Shown in pieces: positions 29,614 to 39,447 of a stretch of 64,000 nucleotides of DNA. This stretch comes from Escherichia phage ECML-134, in the sequence record JX128259; one strand, given 5' to 3'. The translations under genes were made by a program, and so were the position numbers. The notes beneath the pieces were generated by a model. The model saw only the letters and a list, made by a program, of their open reading frames with translations, was not told the origin of the DNA and did no database searches. Every line of letters starts with the position of its first letter. Position 1 is the stretch's first letter.

Positions 29614-30087
29614 TTATTTGAATGATTTAACGTACTGAATAGAGCCTTTACTATTCACGAAAGCGATTTTACCATTTTTATTATACATGGTAGCAGTACG
29701 CTGATAGCCATAAGTTTGCTTACCAGATTGATAACCAACTAATGCAAAATTATCTTCACCCATTTTATTCTGTTTAGCACGAATACGTTCATGACCATGT
29801 GCCATAAGAACTTTAGCATCACCAGTTGCAATGGATCTACGAGTTTTTTCATCTTCAACTGTATTAACAAAATCGTCAAATGAATCAAATTTAGCATGTG
29901 ATTTATTATACAGTTTTCCATCTACTGCATAATTATATCCTTGTACATCCATCTCAACTTCTGTACCATCATCTAATACAGCAGTAATTTTCTGTCCTTT
30001 TTTAAATTTCAAAAGATCAGTAAAAGATTCAGCAATAATTTGAGAATTAATAGCTGCTTCAGTAATAAATTCTTGATATGTTTTCAT
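29614..30087 (-). CDS. Internal-protein-like capsid-targeted protein
   Basis: N-terminal MKTYQEFITEA matches the T4 internal-protein capsid targeting sequence; 157 aa. Confidence 0.6.
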   Translation of the reverse strand: MKTYQEFITEAAINSQIIAESFTDLLKFKKGQKITAVLDDGTEVEMDVQGYNYAVDGKLYNKSHAKFDSFDDFVNTVEDEKTRRSIATGDAKVLMAHGHERIRAKQNKMGEDNFALVGYQSGKQTYGYQRTATMYNKNGKIAFVNSKGSIQYVKSFK

Positions 30088-30143
30088 GTATATCCTTTAA
30101 ATGTAAATAGTGTTATTATTTAAGTTTTGGACAATTCACACAC

Positions 30144-30178
30144 ATGAATTGTCCATTTCTATATTTACCCATTACCAG
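30144..30178 (-). repeat. About 34-nt repeat, copy 2, adjacent to perfect hairpin tgaattgtcca/tggacaattca
   Basis: See copy 1; the hairpin at about 30128-30160 has an 11-bp stem. Confidence 0.6.
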
Positions 30179-30195
30179 GTTCGAACTCGGCTTTA

Positions 30196-30777
30196 TTAAG
30201 AATTACCGCGGGCTGCATTAGCAACAGCGTAAGCGTACTGAACATTAGCGTCTTTAAACGTACCTTTAGAGGTATCTAGTTCTGCCTTAAAGCCGCCTTT
30301 AGTCATAACCTCGGCGAATTCTTTACGGAAAGCCATTGCATCAAGGCTTCTCCATGACGATTTGTGCTTGGCGAATTCAAGACCAGCGTAGTTGACAGCC
30401 TTAGCTAATTTATTATCAATAACCCATTTACCAGCTTTAGGCACAAACACCGGGCCTTTCTGTTTAGAGAATAGTTTTAAATTCCAGCGACGAAGGTCAC
30501 CGTCAGCTTTAACAAAAGCTGCGTCCAAGTTACTAGCAACAACATCTTGAATATGGCCAAATTTAAGCCCATCAACTTCAATATTTAAATCTGTACGCCA
30601 GCGAAGTCCTTCCCAAGCGAAAGCTTTAAAGTCAGAAGCTTTTGTAGCTAAGTATCGTTCAATAGGGGCTGTTTTAGGGTCAAAGCCGTTTCCCGATCGG
30701 TAGGTCCACTCATCTTTATTAATGCCTTTGGCCTTTTCCACAGAAGCTTCAGCGATAAATTCTTTATACGTTTTCAT
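30196..30777 (-). CDS. ipIII: Internal protein III-like
   Basis: 193 aa; N-terminal MKTYKEFIAEA targeting sequence; position just before e as in T4; size close to T4 IPIII. Confidence 0.65.
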   Translation of the reverse strand: MKTYKEFIAEASVEKAKGINKDEWTYRSGNGFDPKTAPIERYLATKASDFKAFAWEGLRWRTDLNIEVDGLKFGHIQDVVASNLDAAFVKADGDLRRWNLKLFSKQKGPVFVPKAGKWVIDNKLAKAVNYAGLEFAKHKSSWRSLDAMAFRKEFAEVMTKGGFKAELDTSKGTFKDANVQYAYAVANAARGNS

Positions 30778-30807
30778 GTGTTTCCTTTAAATATTTTAAT
30801 TAGTAAC

Positions 30808-30850
30808 TGTGAATATACTATCACAGTTTTAGGAGAAAGTAAACAACTTT
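30808..30850 (-). promoter_or_regulatory. Early promoter with stem-loop upstream of ipIII
   Basis: gtaaaca at 30839-30845; inverted repeat actgtga/tcacagt flanks the -10. Confidence 0.5.
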
Positions 30851-31343
30851 ATAAATTTTTATACGCGTCCCACGTACCAGTTCTAAACGTTGCAATGACT
30901 CGTTTTGCGCGATTAGGTGTTTGATTATACCATCGACTTTTAGCTAAGTTAACTGCTGCTTCATCCCAGCGTTTTTGTTGAAGCATACGTAAAGAGTTAG
31001 TAAATCCTGCTACGCCAGTTTCTCCCATTTGGAAGACCATATTAATCAATGCACAACGACGAACCGCATCAAGAGAATCATAAACCGGTTTTAATTTAGC
31101 ATTTCTCAGAATTCCGCGAACAGCAGCATCAACATCCTGATTAAAGAGTTTTTCAGCCTCGTCTTTGGTAATTACACCATTGCAATTACGTCCAATAGCT
31201 TTATCTAATTCAGATTTAGCAACACTAAGTGATGGACTTTTGGTAAGCAAATGACCAATGCCAATAGTGTAATAGCCTTCTGTGTCTTTATAGATTTTAA
31301 GTCTAAGACCTTCATCTATACGTAACATTTCAAATATATTCAT
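30849..31343 (-). CDS. e: Endolysin (T4 lysozyme)
   Basis: 164 aa; [35 protein letters not shown]...; near-identical to recalled T4 lysozyme with a few substitutions. Confidence 0.95.
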
Positions 31344-31354
31344 AATACCTCCTA

Positions 31355-31380
31355 AGTATTTATAGAAGGTATTTATAAAT
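31355..31380 (-). promoter_or_regulatory. Late promoter(s) for lysozyme gene e
   Basis: Two reverse-strand TATAAATA motifs (plus coordinates 31357-31364 and 31370-31377) just upstream of the e start. Confidence 0.55.
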
Positions 31381-31835
31381 TAAAAGAGGCTGTTCATTAT
31401 TCGGTAAAGTGAAGGACCCATCACATATTGCCACTGAGTACGAGGAATAAGAGCAAAAGCGTCCATCTCTGGAATCATAACGCCATCTTTATTTTCAAAA
31501 TAAGACTTGCAGCGGCAATTTCTAAACATCTCATGCTCTACTGGAATCGTATAATAAAATAACTGTAGGTCTTTATTACTAGAATATTTAAATACACCTA
31601 GGTCTTCTAGAAGGTCTGGATTATAATTGCTAAAACCAGTCTCTTCTAAACATTCTCTTCGTGCTGCATCTAATGCGCTTAAATCAGAATTTTCTACACG
31701 ACCTTTTGGAATATCCCAACGATGTGCCATCGTTCCAGGCTTACGAGAACCAGTAACCCGACCCATAAATAAATCTTTATCTTCTGTCATAAAGATAATA
31801 CCAGCTGATAGTGTTTTCATTTTAATTTCCTGCAT
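31380..31835 (-). CDS. nudE: Nudix hydrolase NudE
   Basis: Nudix box GRVENSDLSALDAARRECLEETG; 151 aa; start may instead be the ATGA-coupled Met at 31820. Confidence 0.8.
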   Translation of the reverse strand: MQEIKMKTLSAGIIFMTEDKDLFMGRVTGSRKPGTMAHRWDIPKGRVENSDLSALDAARRECLEETGFSNYNPDLLEDLGVFKYSSNKDLQLFYYTIPVEHEMFRNCRCKSYFENKDGVMIPEMDAFALIPRTQWQYVMGPSLYRIMNSLF

Positions 31836-38206: not shown

Positions 38207-38208
38207 TA

Positions 38209-38592
38209 TCAGCCTTCATCAACAATAGTATGAGTATGGGCATTTACGATTTGCCACCAATCAAAGCGATTAGAACCATACATCGGTTTGTTTTCATTTT
38301 CTTTGATAATATCACGGAGTTCATCTTCGGTAGCGGCTTTCGCGATTAAATCAGCATATCCACCACGAGGATAATAATTATCACCTGCAAAAAGTAAAAA
38401 ATTTGGTGTAATATTATTGAACTCTTCAAGAGTAATAACTGTTCCTGATGGTAGTTGAACAATCTCTACATAGTTATATCCTAATTTTTGAGCAGCATCT
38501 ACTGCTTCAAGCAGAGTATCATGAGCCCGTCCTATTTGGCAATTTGGCTTTTTAGATGGATTAGCCTGATAATCCGCGTACACTTTATACAT
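38209..38592 (-). CDS. Hypothetical protein
   Basis: Start at MYKVYADYQ; about 127 aa. Confidence 0.45.
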   Translation of the reverse strand: MYKVYADYQANPSKKPNCQIGRAHDTLLEAVDAAQKLGYNYVEIVQLPSGTVITLEEFNNITPNFLLFAGDNYYPRGGYADLIAKAATEDELRDIIKENENKPMYGSNRFDWWQIVNAHTHTIVDEG

Positions 38593-38593
38593 T

Positions 38594-38779
38594 CTATTCA
38601 CCTTTAGAAATTTTATCCATAGCAATAGCAATTAAACCAATTAAAAATGCTACTACAAGTGAAAACACATTTTCTGCTGTAGTTAATAATCCGCATATAA
38701 ATCCAACAAACATTGAAAAACTAAAAGCGGAAGCAGAAATTGCAATAGCAACATTTCGAATTAATTCACAGCGTTTCAT
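38594..38779 (-). CDS. Small hydrophobic membrane peptide
   Basis: 61 aa; two hydrophobic helices; early promoter with stem-loop at 38800-38842. Confidence 0.45.
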   Translation of the reverse strand: MKRCELIRNVAIAISASAFSFSMFVGFICGLLTTAENVFSLVVAFLIGLIAIAMDKISKGE

Positions 38780-38799
38780 TTTATTCTCCTCAGTAGTTG

Positions 38800-38842
38800 A
38801 TAGGGTAATAGTATCACTACCCTATCTAAAAGTAAACTTATT
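38800..38842 (-). promoter_or_regulatory. Early promoter with perfect stem-loop
   Basis: gatagggta-atagtatcac-taccctatc hairpin around the -10; gtaaac at 38832-38837. Confidence 0.5.
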
Positions 38843-39071
38843 TTTTACGAAAAATTGATTTATTTTCTGCTGCCCATTTTTCAATAACTGCAGCAGGACC
38901 AGTAACAACAATTTTATCACCGTAATCTTCTGCAGCGAGTTGACCGAAATTATCTAATGCATCACGAAGAACTCCATGAGGCATTTCGCCCATTTTATCT
39001 TTCTTGCCAATGTAAATAAACTCAACTTTTACATCAGCAGCTTCAGCAATAAATTCTTGATACGTTTTCAT
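38838..39071 (-). CDS. Internal-protein-like capsid-targeted protein (ipI position)
   Basis: Start MKTYQEFIAEA (exact T4 targeting sequence) after ggagaataaa RBS; about 77 aa. Confidence 0.6.
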   Translation of the reverse strand: MKTYQEFIAEAADVKVEFIYIGKKDKMGEMPHGVLRDALDNFGQLAAEDYGDKIVVTGPAAVIEKWAAENKSIFRKK

Positions 39072-39119
39072 TTTATTCTCCAATTTCACATTTGTTTTGA
39101 TAGGGTAATAGTATCACTA
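39065..39119 (-). repeat. Promoter-leader cassette, copy B
   Basis: See copy A; includes RBS, start codon and -10 region of the downstream gene. Confidence 0.7.
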
Positions 39120-39150
39120 CTAAAACCCCGTGTAAACAACTTTGTGAAAT
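39100..39150 (-). promoter_or_regulatory. Early promoter upstream of the ipI-position gene
   Basis: tgtaaaca at 39131-39138; gatagggtaatagtatcactac -10 region; A/T-rich upstream element. Confidence 0.5.
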
Positions 39151-39156
39151 TGTTTA

Positions 39157-39447
39157 TTACAAAAGATTTTTAGCAATAATCTTGAGATGTGCTGCAGAAA
39201 TGTGTTTAGCTTTAAACAACGCAGTTTCTTCGGCAGGAGAGATAACGATTGTAGCACCATCCTTTTTAGCAGACCACCCATCACCTAGGTAAACAGTACC
39301 TTTGATTTCTTCGCCATCAACCAGACTAATCATTGGTTTACCTTCTCGTCCTTTATTTGCTTTAATAACTTCAGAAGTAAGAGTAGCTTCGGTAATGGTA
39401 GAAACCGGGGTAGTTGTAGTAGAAGTAAATTCTTTAAATGTTTTCAT
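39157..39447 (-). CDS. Hypothetical protein with degenerate internal-protein-like N-terminus
   Basis: 96 aa; MKTFKEFTSTTTTP...; early promoter with perfect stem-loop at 39470-39520. Confidence 0.5.
   Translation of the reverse strand: MKTFKEFTSTTTTPVSTITEATLTSEVIKANKGREGKPMISLVDGEEIKGTVYLGDGWSAKKDGATIVISPAEETALFKAKHISAAHLKIIAKNLL

Follow-up and report, generated by a model that had tools for sequence, protein, structure and literature searches.

Six genes in a 64-kb window of the Escherichia phage ECML-134 genome (the window being the whole stretch of DNA that was analyzed) are in all likelihood internal protein (ip) cassettes of T-even phages, located at three variable sites of this Tequatrovirus genome, whose products would be packaged into the virion, injected into the host, and act in counter-defense. 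Overall, these genes belong to a known class that includes one locus and family, here called IpY/IpX, which has probably escaped recognition. The sequence identities, the anatomy of the loci, the insertion junctions, and the conservation of the leader reported below are direct observations.

Six genes encode a capsid targeting leader

When the window is translated in all six frames, the motif MK[TS][YF]x[EQ]F is found six times, each time at the first ATG of one of six open reading frames (ORFs), compared to 0.003 matches expected by shuffling (mean of 300 shuffles; maximum 1). A preliminary description of this DNA had listed five ORFs that start with an internal protein leader and a sixth with MKTFKEF, and all of them are indeed found at their positions. 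The window has 160 ORFs with 50 aa or more; the six that carry the motif are all encoded on the minus strand, and five of them show the full leader MK[TS]Y.[EQ]F[IL].E/A (with the slash marking the cleavage site). Previous work assigned leader residues 4 and 7 to targeting and residues 8 and 10 to processing by the protease gp21, which cleaves after L/I-x-E (PMC9026906). Y/F4 and F7 are present in all six proteins and L/I8 and E10 in all five short-leader ORFs, where the gp21 sites at residues 8 to 11 read ITE/A, IAE/A, LTE/A, LNE/A, and IAE/A. In the remaining ORF (39157-39447), MKTFKEF is followed by ITE/A at residues 18 to 21, which places the cleavage site at residues 18 to 20 and gives a propeptide of 20 residues.

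Beyond the leader, the mature regions appear unrelated to each other, as had been suggested: Pairwise BLASTP among the six revealed no significant similarity (all E > 0.1), and hhalign probabilities were 3% to 14%. Matches to known structural proteins had been named as evidence that would speak against internal proteins, and this comparison returned none for any of the six in Pfam, PHROGs, and PDB searches.

The literature on the class, from which we take targeting, cleavage, ejection, and targets, suggests how these proteins may work. The N-terminal capsid targeting sequence would bind the prohead scaffolding core so that some hundreds of copies enter the head, where the prohead protease gp21 would cut after the glutamate of L/I-x-E (residue 20 in IpI, residue 10 in the other five). 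Once freed, the mature protein would remain among the packaged DNA and be ejected with it, active before any phage gene is expressed. Processed forms of T4 IpI and IpIII are present in the virion (PMC9026906), and the leader suggests that Ip4, IpX, and IpY are packaged as well. For the latter three, our literature search turned up neither virion proteomics nor N-terminal sequencing.

Four named internal proteins occupy the two described sites

Two polymorphic ip sites are described in the literature, beside e/ipIII or beside 57B, and IpI, Ip6, IpIII, and Ip4 are encoded within these loci. At the first, ip4 (29614..30087, minus strand) takes the place of T4 ipII and denV. It encodes Ip4 (or IpIV) of 157 aa with the leader MKTYQEFITE/A and a predicted mature protein of 147 aa (pI 9.1), which matches Pfam DUF7412 at 5.7e-96 and phrog_3155 ("internal virion protein"). 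Its homologues are annotated as IpIV or Ip4 in their source records, and Ip4 belongs to the same class as IpI, IpIII, and Ip6. The neighboring ipIII (30196..30777, minus strand) encodes 193 aa with the leader MKTYKEFIAE/A (predicted mature protein 183 aa, pI 9.6; phrog_5341) that align along their full length with T4 IpIII at 92% identity. A 56-nt direct repeat brackets ip4: The copy on the ipIII side (30143..30198, no strand assigned) overlaps the ipIII stop codon, and its partner (29495..29550, no strand assigned; 82% identical) reaches across the vs.8 ORF start (ORF 28921-29508) and the region upstream. The ipIII-side repeat is a copy of the vs.8 5' end, as seen from a tblastn match to residues 8-27 of T4 Vs.8.

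At the other site, ipI (39157..39447, minus strand) encodes 96 aa with the propeptide MKTFKEFTSTTTTPVSTITE/A and the mature IPI* of 76 aa (pI 9.0). The leader of this ORF had been called degenerate, a view that needs correction: The protein is the archetype IpI, 99% identical to the T4 protein with one extra threonine in the propeptide. Residues 21-96 match Pfam IPI_T4 at 7.5e-54 and align to residues 1-76 of the PDB 2JUB chain, so that the predicted mature end coincides with that of the solved IPI* chain. Beside it, ip6 (38838..39071, minus strand) encodes Ip6 (or IpVI) of 77 aa with the leader MKTYQEFIAE/A and a predicted mature protein of 67 aa (pI 6.8); the ORF listing opens at an upstream GTG (38838-39089), whereas a start at the ATG at 39071 yields the 77 aa annotated in relatives. 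Ip6 matches phrog_8111 ("internal virion protein"), is annotated as ip6 or ipVI in phages JK1, VR7, and PST, is present in T6, and shares 97.4% identity with Bas37_0260, which is reported to inhibit McrBC. [quoted passage not shown]

The published targets of the class are GmrSD of CT596, GmrSD of ECOR17, and McrBC (PMC12373910; bioRxiv 10.1101/2025.11.20.689424), with T4 IpIII inhibiting the ECOR17 system (PMC12373910). Judged by orthology to proteins with a demonstrated target (IpI 99%, IpIII 92%, and Ip6 97.4% identity), these three are predicted type IV restriction inhibitors that would block the modification-dependent nucleases GmrS/GmrD of CT596, GmrS1/GmrSD2 of ECOR17, and McrBC. Ip4, IpX, and IpY show no similarity outside the leader to the type IV restriction inhibitors IpI, IpII, IpIII, and Bas37_0260, and Ip4-10 gave no reproducible inhibition against a panel of 15 GmrSD groups (PMC12373910).

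The leader together with these identities and published targets thus supports the earlier assignment of the genes to a class with anti-restriction functions. Two other parts of that description stand only in part. Since three of the named proteins, or nearly identical orthologues of them, have published targets, they are not effectors with an unknown host target, and four of the six ORFs had already been named. Similarly, the repertoire does exceed the three internal proteins of T4, but its expansion is not novel because T-even phages are known to have at least ten ips (Repoila 1994 as cited in PMC12373910), with variable sets described already in 1994.

IpY and IpX form a probable third site between rnaC and e.8

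IpI, IpIII, Ip4, and Ip6 add nothing new, and only IpX and IpY, which are set apart from ip5 and ip7-ip10 by record names rather than by sequence, appear to be unrecognized. Their genes form a 1.27-kb insertion relative to T4 that has the rnaC terminator as its exact border on one side and the e.8 promoter on the other. The two had been placed in a separate locus between nudE and the tRNAs, which holds in substance, though more precisely the genes sit between e.8 and the rnaC/tRNA cluster, around 3.5 kb upstream of nudE. This is neither of the described ip loci, but location is a description and not a functional requirement and therefore does not bar IpX and IpY from the class.

IpY (157 aa; 35551..36024, minus strand) has the leader MKSYTQFLNE/AVLNE/A with two possible cleavage sites and a predicted mature protein of around 142-147 aa, and IpX (187 aa; 34862..35425, minus strand) has the leader MKTYAEFLTE/A and a predicted mature protein of 177 aa; both mature proteins have a pI of 9.5. 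The T4 late-promoter box TATAAATA (36065..36072, minus strand) ends 40 nt before the IpY ATG and spans the junction at the upstream end of the insertion. It is annotated as a late promoter in SA21RB, and the same arrangement of terminator, TATAAATA, and leader gene is found in a Klebsiella phage. A near-consensus box AATAAATA (35464..35471, minus strand), one mismatch away from TATAAATA, ends 38 nt before the IpX ATG and is a candidate late promoter. Three copies of a terminator hairpin alternate with the genes on the minus strand: the rnaC terminator itself (36066..36105), which contains the junction repeat GGGCTTTTTGGTAT, a second copy between IpY and IpX (35507..35546; 88% identical to the first), and a third after IpX (34820..34859), where the tail GGGCTTTTTGGTAT rejoins the T4 sequence. 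An Rfam search over the window reported tRNAs only, and neither rnaC nor rnaD is in Rfam.

The locus would consist of paired cassettes of late promoter, leader gene, and terminator inserted between rnaC and e.8. Its junctions to T4 fall within the repeated terminator tails, and repeats flank all three ip sites, so that cassettes may be gained, lost, and reordered by recombination between flanking terminator or promoter blocks. The site is empty in T4 and T6, and other phages carry either IpY alone or IpY with IpX, most IpY-carrying phages being without IpX; one phage has the reverse gene order and another an IpX-like gene with a leader-tagged ART.

The leader of IpX and IpY is conserved across divergent homologues

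Homologues of IpX are found in 163 phage records and those of IpY in 510, and all of the 40 listed for each are annotated as "hypothetical"; the same goes for the named members of the IpX cluster apart from one evident misannotation. Searching 1.84 billion representatives with HMMER gave six matches to IpX, of which just one was a distant homologue that is informative. For IpX, IpY, IpIII, and Ip6, sequence searches of Pfam, NCBIfam, and PDB gave nothing above threshold, and when the IpY model was compared to BFVD and PDB with Foldseek, all matches were either to its own family or had E > 1. Both proteins match phrog_2280 of unknown function (IpX at 1.2e-53 over residues 1-181, IpY at 5.5e-60 over residues 1-157). 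AlphaFold2 (AF2) models of IpX (pLDDT 68) and IpY (pLDDT 73) have the same architecture of a helical domain, a disordered linker, and a helical hairpin. An all-helical prediction with a Pro/Lys-rich linker is as compatible with a head component that is DNA-associated or scaffold-like as it is with an enzyme inhibitor.

We considered homology between IpX and IpY and rejected it as not shown despite the common PHROG and the predicted architecture, because the leader drives their alignment: BLASTP finds the leader only, an end-to-end BLASTP alignment without composition correction (E = 0.003) is leader-driven, and the hhalign probability is 14% with and 3% without the leader. Since the mature proteins are not detectably homologous, phrog_2280 is probably composite.

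It is conceivable that the leader is a mere footprint of recombination that no longer works as a signal, with the proteins acting unpackaged in the cytoplasm of the cell that produces them. The flanking repeats of the locus, the shuffling of ip cassettes through recombination in conserved flanks (PMC2839356), and a 42-nt repeat of 74% identity formed by the 5' ends of IpX and IpY all fit such an origin. Yet the peptide motif is kept although its codons, like the remainder of the protein, have diverged: Among IpX, P0115, and a Yersinia-phage protein of 189 aa, the mature regions share 23% to 30% identity, but x-x-[YF]-x-E-F-L-x-E is retained. The leader is equally kept in IpY homologues of Klebsiella and Yersinia phages with 38% to 43% overall identity and in those of Mosigvirus, and a Klebsiella-phage gene encodes the same leader with a different DNA sequence. 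Over both families, the leader persists at identities of around 25% to 45%. The residues kept are exactly those for targeting (4, 7) and cleavage (8, 10), and the ten-residue leader is by itself enough to package foreign proteins (PMC9026906). We thus regard a nonfunctional footprint as very improbable.

Counter-defense is the most likely function of IpX and IpY

Like other internal proteins, IpX and IpY would be packaged, cleaved, and ejected, and their most likely job is counter-defense against some first-line host system. Besides the conserved leader, the TATAAATA box before IpY (here and in the Klebsiella phage), the basic predicted mature proteins, and the variable gene content of the locus support their place in the class. 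Phage Bas37 encodes orthologues of both (bas37_0243, 97% identical to IpX; bas37_0244, 99% identical to IpY), which were covered by a published transposon screen. Insertions into bas37_0244 were tolerated (29 of 34 sites hit), with a fitness log2FC of -0.11 in the one host comparison considered from this screen. Only 1 of 48 TA sites was hit in bas37_0243, and the gene is listed as "Essential" in the published table. This call passes without comment in the source paper, and it is not what would be expected of a host-specific counter-defense gene. A polar effect was considered but seems unlikely, given that IpX is followed by a terminator and that none of the genes downstream is essential.

An alternative is that the two proteins are packaged through their leader but are structural or DNA-associated components of the head interior that might contribute to core assembly or DNA condensation, rather than being injected as inhibitors. 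A small helical domain, a disordered Pro/Lys-rich linker, a long helical hairpin, and a pI of 9.5 would suit this role, as would the late promoter expected of a virion component and an "Essential" call like that of structural genes; T4 IpIII mutants also assemble heads more slowly (PMC9026906), and a role of this kind has been proposed for part of IpIII function. However, both genes are missing from T4, T6, and many relatives, and IpX from most IpY carriers, so neither can be a general assembly requirement. The tolerated IpY insertions as well as the lack of similarity to gp22, gp67, gp68, or structural families in Pfam, PHROGs, and PDB further argue against a structural role, which we therefore consider unlikely.

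It is similarly doubtful, though worth stating, that IpX/IpY is a third, late-promoter-driven ip locus, overlooked because T4 and T6 lack it, whose IpX is packaged and, as the "Essential" call for bas37_0243 would suggest, indispensable to its carrier even on laboratory E. coli K-12. If true, IpX would be either an accessory injected protein directed against a core K-12 function or one that head assembly has grown dependent on.

Of all phage molecules, internal proteins act earliest in an infected cell. With IpX and IpY as probable members, the catalogue would gain a widespread family (510 and 163 records from Tequatrovirus, Mosigvirus, and Klebsiella or Yersinia phages), a third genomic site to search for internal proteins, and two candidates for defense systems that still lack an assigned phage inhibitor; attention would also turn to the puzzling signal of essentiality for the IpX orthologue in transposon data already published. 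This is of practical interest for phage therapy as well: Many of the phages with these genes are considered therapeutic candidates, and the genes may determine their host range.

Comparison to known systems

Like the internal proteins of T4, those of the window have an N-terminal leader with an L/I-x-E/A site, are small and mostly basic with unrelated mature parts, and are encoded by single-gene cassettes between repeated regulatory blocks. T4 differs in that it carries ipII where the window has ip4, lacks the Ip6 found here beside ipI, and has an empty IpX/IpY site. Ip4 and Ip6 belong by name and sequence to the polymorphic ip4-ip10 set (Repoila 1994, as far as summarized in PMC12373910), whereas IpX and IpY were never named ip in the records inspected, even where the authors name Ip4 and Ip6. 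The loci also resemble the PeSL cassettes or hyperplastic regions of T4-type genomes, in which single accessory ORFs are bracketed by promoter-plus-stem-loop repeats that are recombination sites (Arbiol et al. 2010, PMC2839356). Unlike these, the IpY/IpX repeat combines a terminator hairpin with a subsequent late promoter of the TATAAATA type and not with an early sigma-70-type promoter. Finally, the T4 ADP-ribosyltransferase Alt is likewise packaged into the head, processed by gp21, and injected (PMC9026906), but it differs in its large size, its own propeptides, and a gene at another position, and none of the six proteins in the window resembles an ART. In a metagenomic relative of the third locus, however, an IpX-like gene has a neighbor that encodes a leader-tagged ART-PolyVal/DUF3990 protein.

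Six leader-bearing genes in a T4-like gene order

The preliminary description had placed six ORFs starting with the capsid targeting sequence (the leader) of T-even internal proteins (Ips) in the window, and an ORF check bore out all of them together with their coordinates. Six-frame translation gave 6 matches to the pattern MK[TS][YF].[EQ]F, all of which coincide with the first ATG of these ORFs (one per ORF), compared with a mean of 0.003 and a maximum of 1 match in shuffled windows (n = 300), a count far above chance. All six proteins exactly match ECML-134 proteins (AFO10647, 48, 57, 58, 63, and 64) and are encoded in a T4-like gene order that runs entirely on the minus strand (vs.6-vs.8, ip genes, e, nudE, e.2-e.8, rnaC/rnaD, tRNAs, trna.2-4, ipI, 57B, 57A, and gene 1). 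Over the 10-kb region, identity is 98.4% with Escherichia phage vB_EcoM_SCS4 and 94-95% with many further Tequatrovirus genomes. The vs.6 orthologue (28225-28587) is a GrcA/YfiD-like autonomous glycyl-radical cofactor that is annotated as "pyruvate formate-lyase" in SCS4. The window has nine tRNAs, without those for Pro, Ile, and His, and a GIY-YIG seg-like homing endonuclease ORF (36927-37577; 82% identity across 99 aa to T4 SegB) separates tRNA-Ser from tRNA-Gly at the exact spot of tRNA-Pro in the relatives T4, SA21RB, and Bas39-41.

As summarized in a review that reports work of Mullaney and Black (PMC9026906), the first 10 residues of IpIII are enough for carriage into the prohead core. 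According to the same review, targeting depends on residues 4 and 7 and processing on residues 8 and 10, gp21, the prohead protease, cleaves behind the Glu of L/I-x-E, propeptides comprise 10-19 residues, and each head holds ca. 360 copies of each Ip. The five short-leader proteins have all of the corresponding positions (Y/F4, F7, I/L8, and E10 followed by Ala), while the IpI leader has F4 and F7 with a cleavage site at I18-T19-E20, directly before A21. Among the window and the compared loci of relatives (L001-L023), position 8 is Leu (F-L-x-E) in the leaders of the third locus described below and almost always Ile (F-I-x-E) at the two classical loci; both are compatible with the gp21 site.

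Four of the six genes are known ip genes. The minus-strand ORF at 39157-39447, whose leader had been regarded as degenerate, turned out to be ipI itself: Pfam IPI_T4 matches residues 21-96, and the protein is 99% identical to T4 IpI with one extra Thr in the propeptide as the sole difference. Since 2JUB, the solved 76-residue chain of IPI*, aligns to residues 21-96, the predicted cleavage point is confirmed. The product of ipIII (30196-30777, minus strand) is 92% identical to T4 IpIII, ip4 (29614-30087, minus strand; DUF7412 and phrog_3155) is named Ip4 or IpIV in several sources, and ip6 (38838-39071, minus strand) is annotated as ip6/ipVI in phages JK1, VR7, and PST and also occurs in T6. 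No counterpart of T4 ipII or denV was found throughout the window, and ip4 occupies their place (29400-30200). Next to it (28921-29572), residues 1-32 of T4 Vs.8 align with 29572-29477 in another frame than the 195-aa vs.8 ORF (28921-29508), so vs.8 of the window is frameshifted or N-terminally shortened compared to T4. In T6 (NC_054907, 57000-70000; L023), regB abuts e, leaving no ip genes beside e, and the ipI site holds an 85-aa Ip together with Ip6, the same pair as in phage KarlGJung (Bas37).

Previous work assigned to each of Ip1, Ip2, and Ip3 a single, different GmrSD-type type IV restriction enzyme that it inhibits (that of CT596, ECOR21, and ECOR17, respectively), detected "at least 10" ips across related phages via their signal sequence, and obtained no reproducible hit with Ip4-10 when these were tested on a GmrSD panel (PMC12373910). 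McrBC is reported to be inhibited by Bas37_0260, a leader-bearing protein of the ipI locus (HIDEN-SEQ preprint, 10.1101/2025.11.20.689424) to which Ip6 of the window is 97.4% identical. An ip set larger than that of T4, which had been put forward as an expanded repertoire, is the documented norm (PMC12373910). The suggestion that these genes encode packaged effectors with unknown targets was right in kind, but three of the six have published targets, either directly or via near-identical orthologues. The ip class and four of its members here, three of them with targets, are established, and what remains as new is a probable third ip locus, whose two leader-bearing families are widespread but unnamed.

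A probable third ip locus between e.8 and rnaC

The genes at this locus, for which we use the working names IpY (35551-36024) and IpX (34862-35425), are located between e.8 and rnaC. In T4, the rnaC terminator (…GGGGCTTTTTGGTAT) passes directly into CTAAGCC…, leading to the e.8 promoter, and alignment revealed that 1.27 kb are inserted in the window exactly at this boundary. At the left junction GGGGCTTTTTGGTAT is joined to AAATA and at the right junction TAGGGCTTTTTGGTAT to CTAGG, with the 14-nt repeat GGGCTTTTTGGTAT at both ends. A perfect late-promoter box, TATAAATA (36065-36072), arises from the left junction and ends 40 nt upstream of the start codon of IpY. AATAAATA precedes IpX, and a terminator hairpin follows each of the two genes.

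Flanking direct repeats are present at this site and at the two classical ip sites. A 56-nt direct repeat copying the 5' end of vs.8 lies on either side of ip4 (29495-29550 and 30143-30198; 82% identical), ipI and ip6 are surrounded by three promoter/stem-loop blocks, and IpY and IpX by a total of three related terminator hairpins. These repeats agree with a published model in which hyperplastic regions of T4-type genomes are shuffled by recombination (PMC2839356). Following this literature, we infer that the cassettes are shuffled by recombination; what we observe here are repeats, exact junctions, and a site occupancy that differs between phages.

The third site is empty in T4 and likewise in T6, where nothing is inserted between e.8 and the stable RNAs. 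It holds IpY alone in Bas39, Bas40, JK1, and several IMG/VR contigs, and IpY followed by IpX in the window, SCS4, SA21RB, and Bas37. In Yersinia phage fHe-Yen9-01 (L015:2700-4537), the gene order is reversed (IpX-like, then IpY-like), and an extra 52-aa ORF with the leader MKTYIEFINE is found just upstream. In one metagenomic contig (SRR28624380_555336), the gene directly after an IpX-like gene (L006:2092-2526) encodes a 144-aa protein that has a leader of the same type, MITFKQFLNES, and ART-PolyVal/DUF3990 Pfam matches. The third locus of this contig thus appears to encode a putative ADP-ribosyltransferase that is targeted to the capsid. In a Klebsiella phage, an IpY homologue follows the tRNAs at the syntenic position, with the same arrangement of terminator, TATAAATA, and leader as in the window.

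Searches using tblastn found relatives of IpY in 510 phage records and of IpX in 163, and all 40 matches listed for each are either called "hypothetical protein" or unannotated. None of the cluster members of IpX and IpY has an ip name, and the authors of JK1 named Ip4 and Ip6 but not the IpY-family gene. Both proteins match PHROG 2280 ("unknown function") over their full length. Escherichia phage RB69 (AY303349 73431-73990) carries the IpX gene with 97.6% identity, but split into two pieces that fall under the annotated ORFs RB69ORF148c and 149c, so that it may be disrupted; this identity is high for a Mosigvirus and suggests recent transfer.

Likely packaging and possible roles of IpX and IpY

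Without the leader, IpX is 30% identical to its homologue P0115 (E = 2e-10) and 23% to the Yersinia phage protein, and the latter two share 27% identity (E = 2e-15). The N-termini are nevertheless kept in all three (MKTYAEFLTE/A, MITFNEFLNE/S, and MLQYNEFLKE/S, with the slash marking the predicted propeptide cut), and IpY homologues of 38-43% overall identity begin with MKFKEFLAE/A and MLEYSEFLKE. Because the peptide is kept though its coding DNA differs, selection acts on the peptide. The predicted mature forms, which would start at Ala11 (or at Ala16 for IpY), have a pI of 9.5 in IpX and IpY and are thus basic, like most other mature Ips here. Leader conservation, basic mature parts, and the late promoter together make it quite likely that IpX and IpY are packaged.

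No homology was detectable between mature IpX and mature IpY, so the preliminary description's view that the mature regions are mutually unrelated stands for all six proteins at the level of sequence. AF2 models of moderate confidence (pLDDT 73 for IpY and 68 for IpX) share a common plan of a floppy leader helix, a small helical domain, a disordered Pro/Lys-rich linker, and a long helical hairpin; fold and sequence searches were uninformative about function. By analogy to every Ip of known function, our best guess is that IpX and IpY would be injected counter-defence proteins, with a type IV nuclease as the foremost candidate target; the main rival is a DNA-associated or assembly role.

Insertion data are available for the Bas37 counterparts (HIDEN-SEQ supplementary table "Bas37_REF_essentiality", 10.1101/2025.11.20.689424). 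The IpX orthologue bas37_0243 (L022:6001-6564; 97% identical) scores 1/48 TA sites and is called "Essential", while both of its neighbours are freely hit and "Non-essential", that is, bas37_0244 (IpY counterpart, 99% identical; 29/34) and bas37_0242 (e.8 counterpart; 23/23), as is the Ip6 counterpart bas37_0260 (15/15). The main text of the preprint does not mention bas37_0243. One would not expect an "Essential" call for an accessory gene missing from T4. One possibility is the trivial one that the laboratory stock lost the IpX cassette via its flanking repeats; others are a real requirement for the gene or a toxic insertion product.
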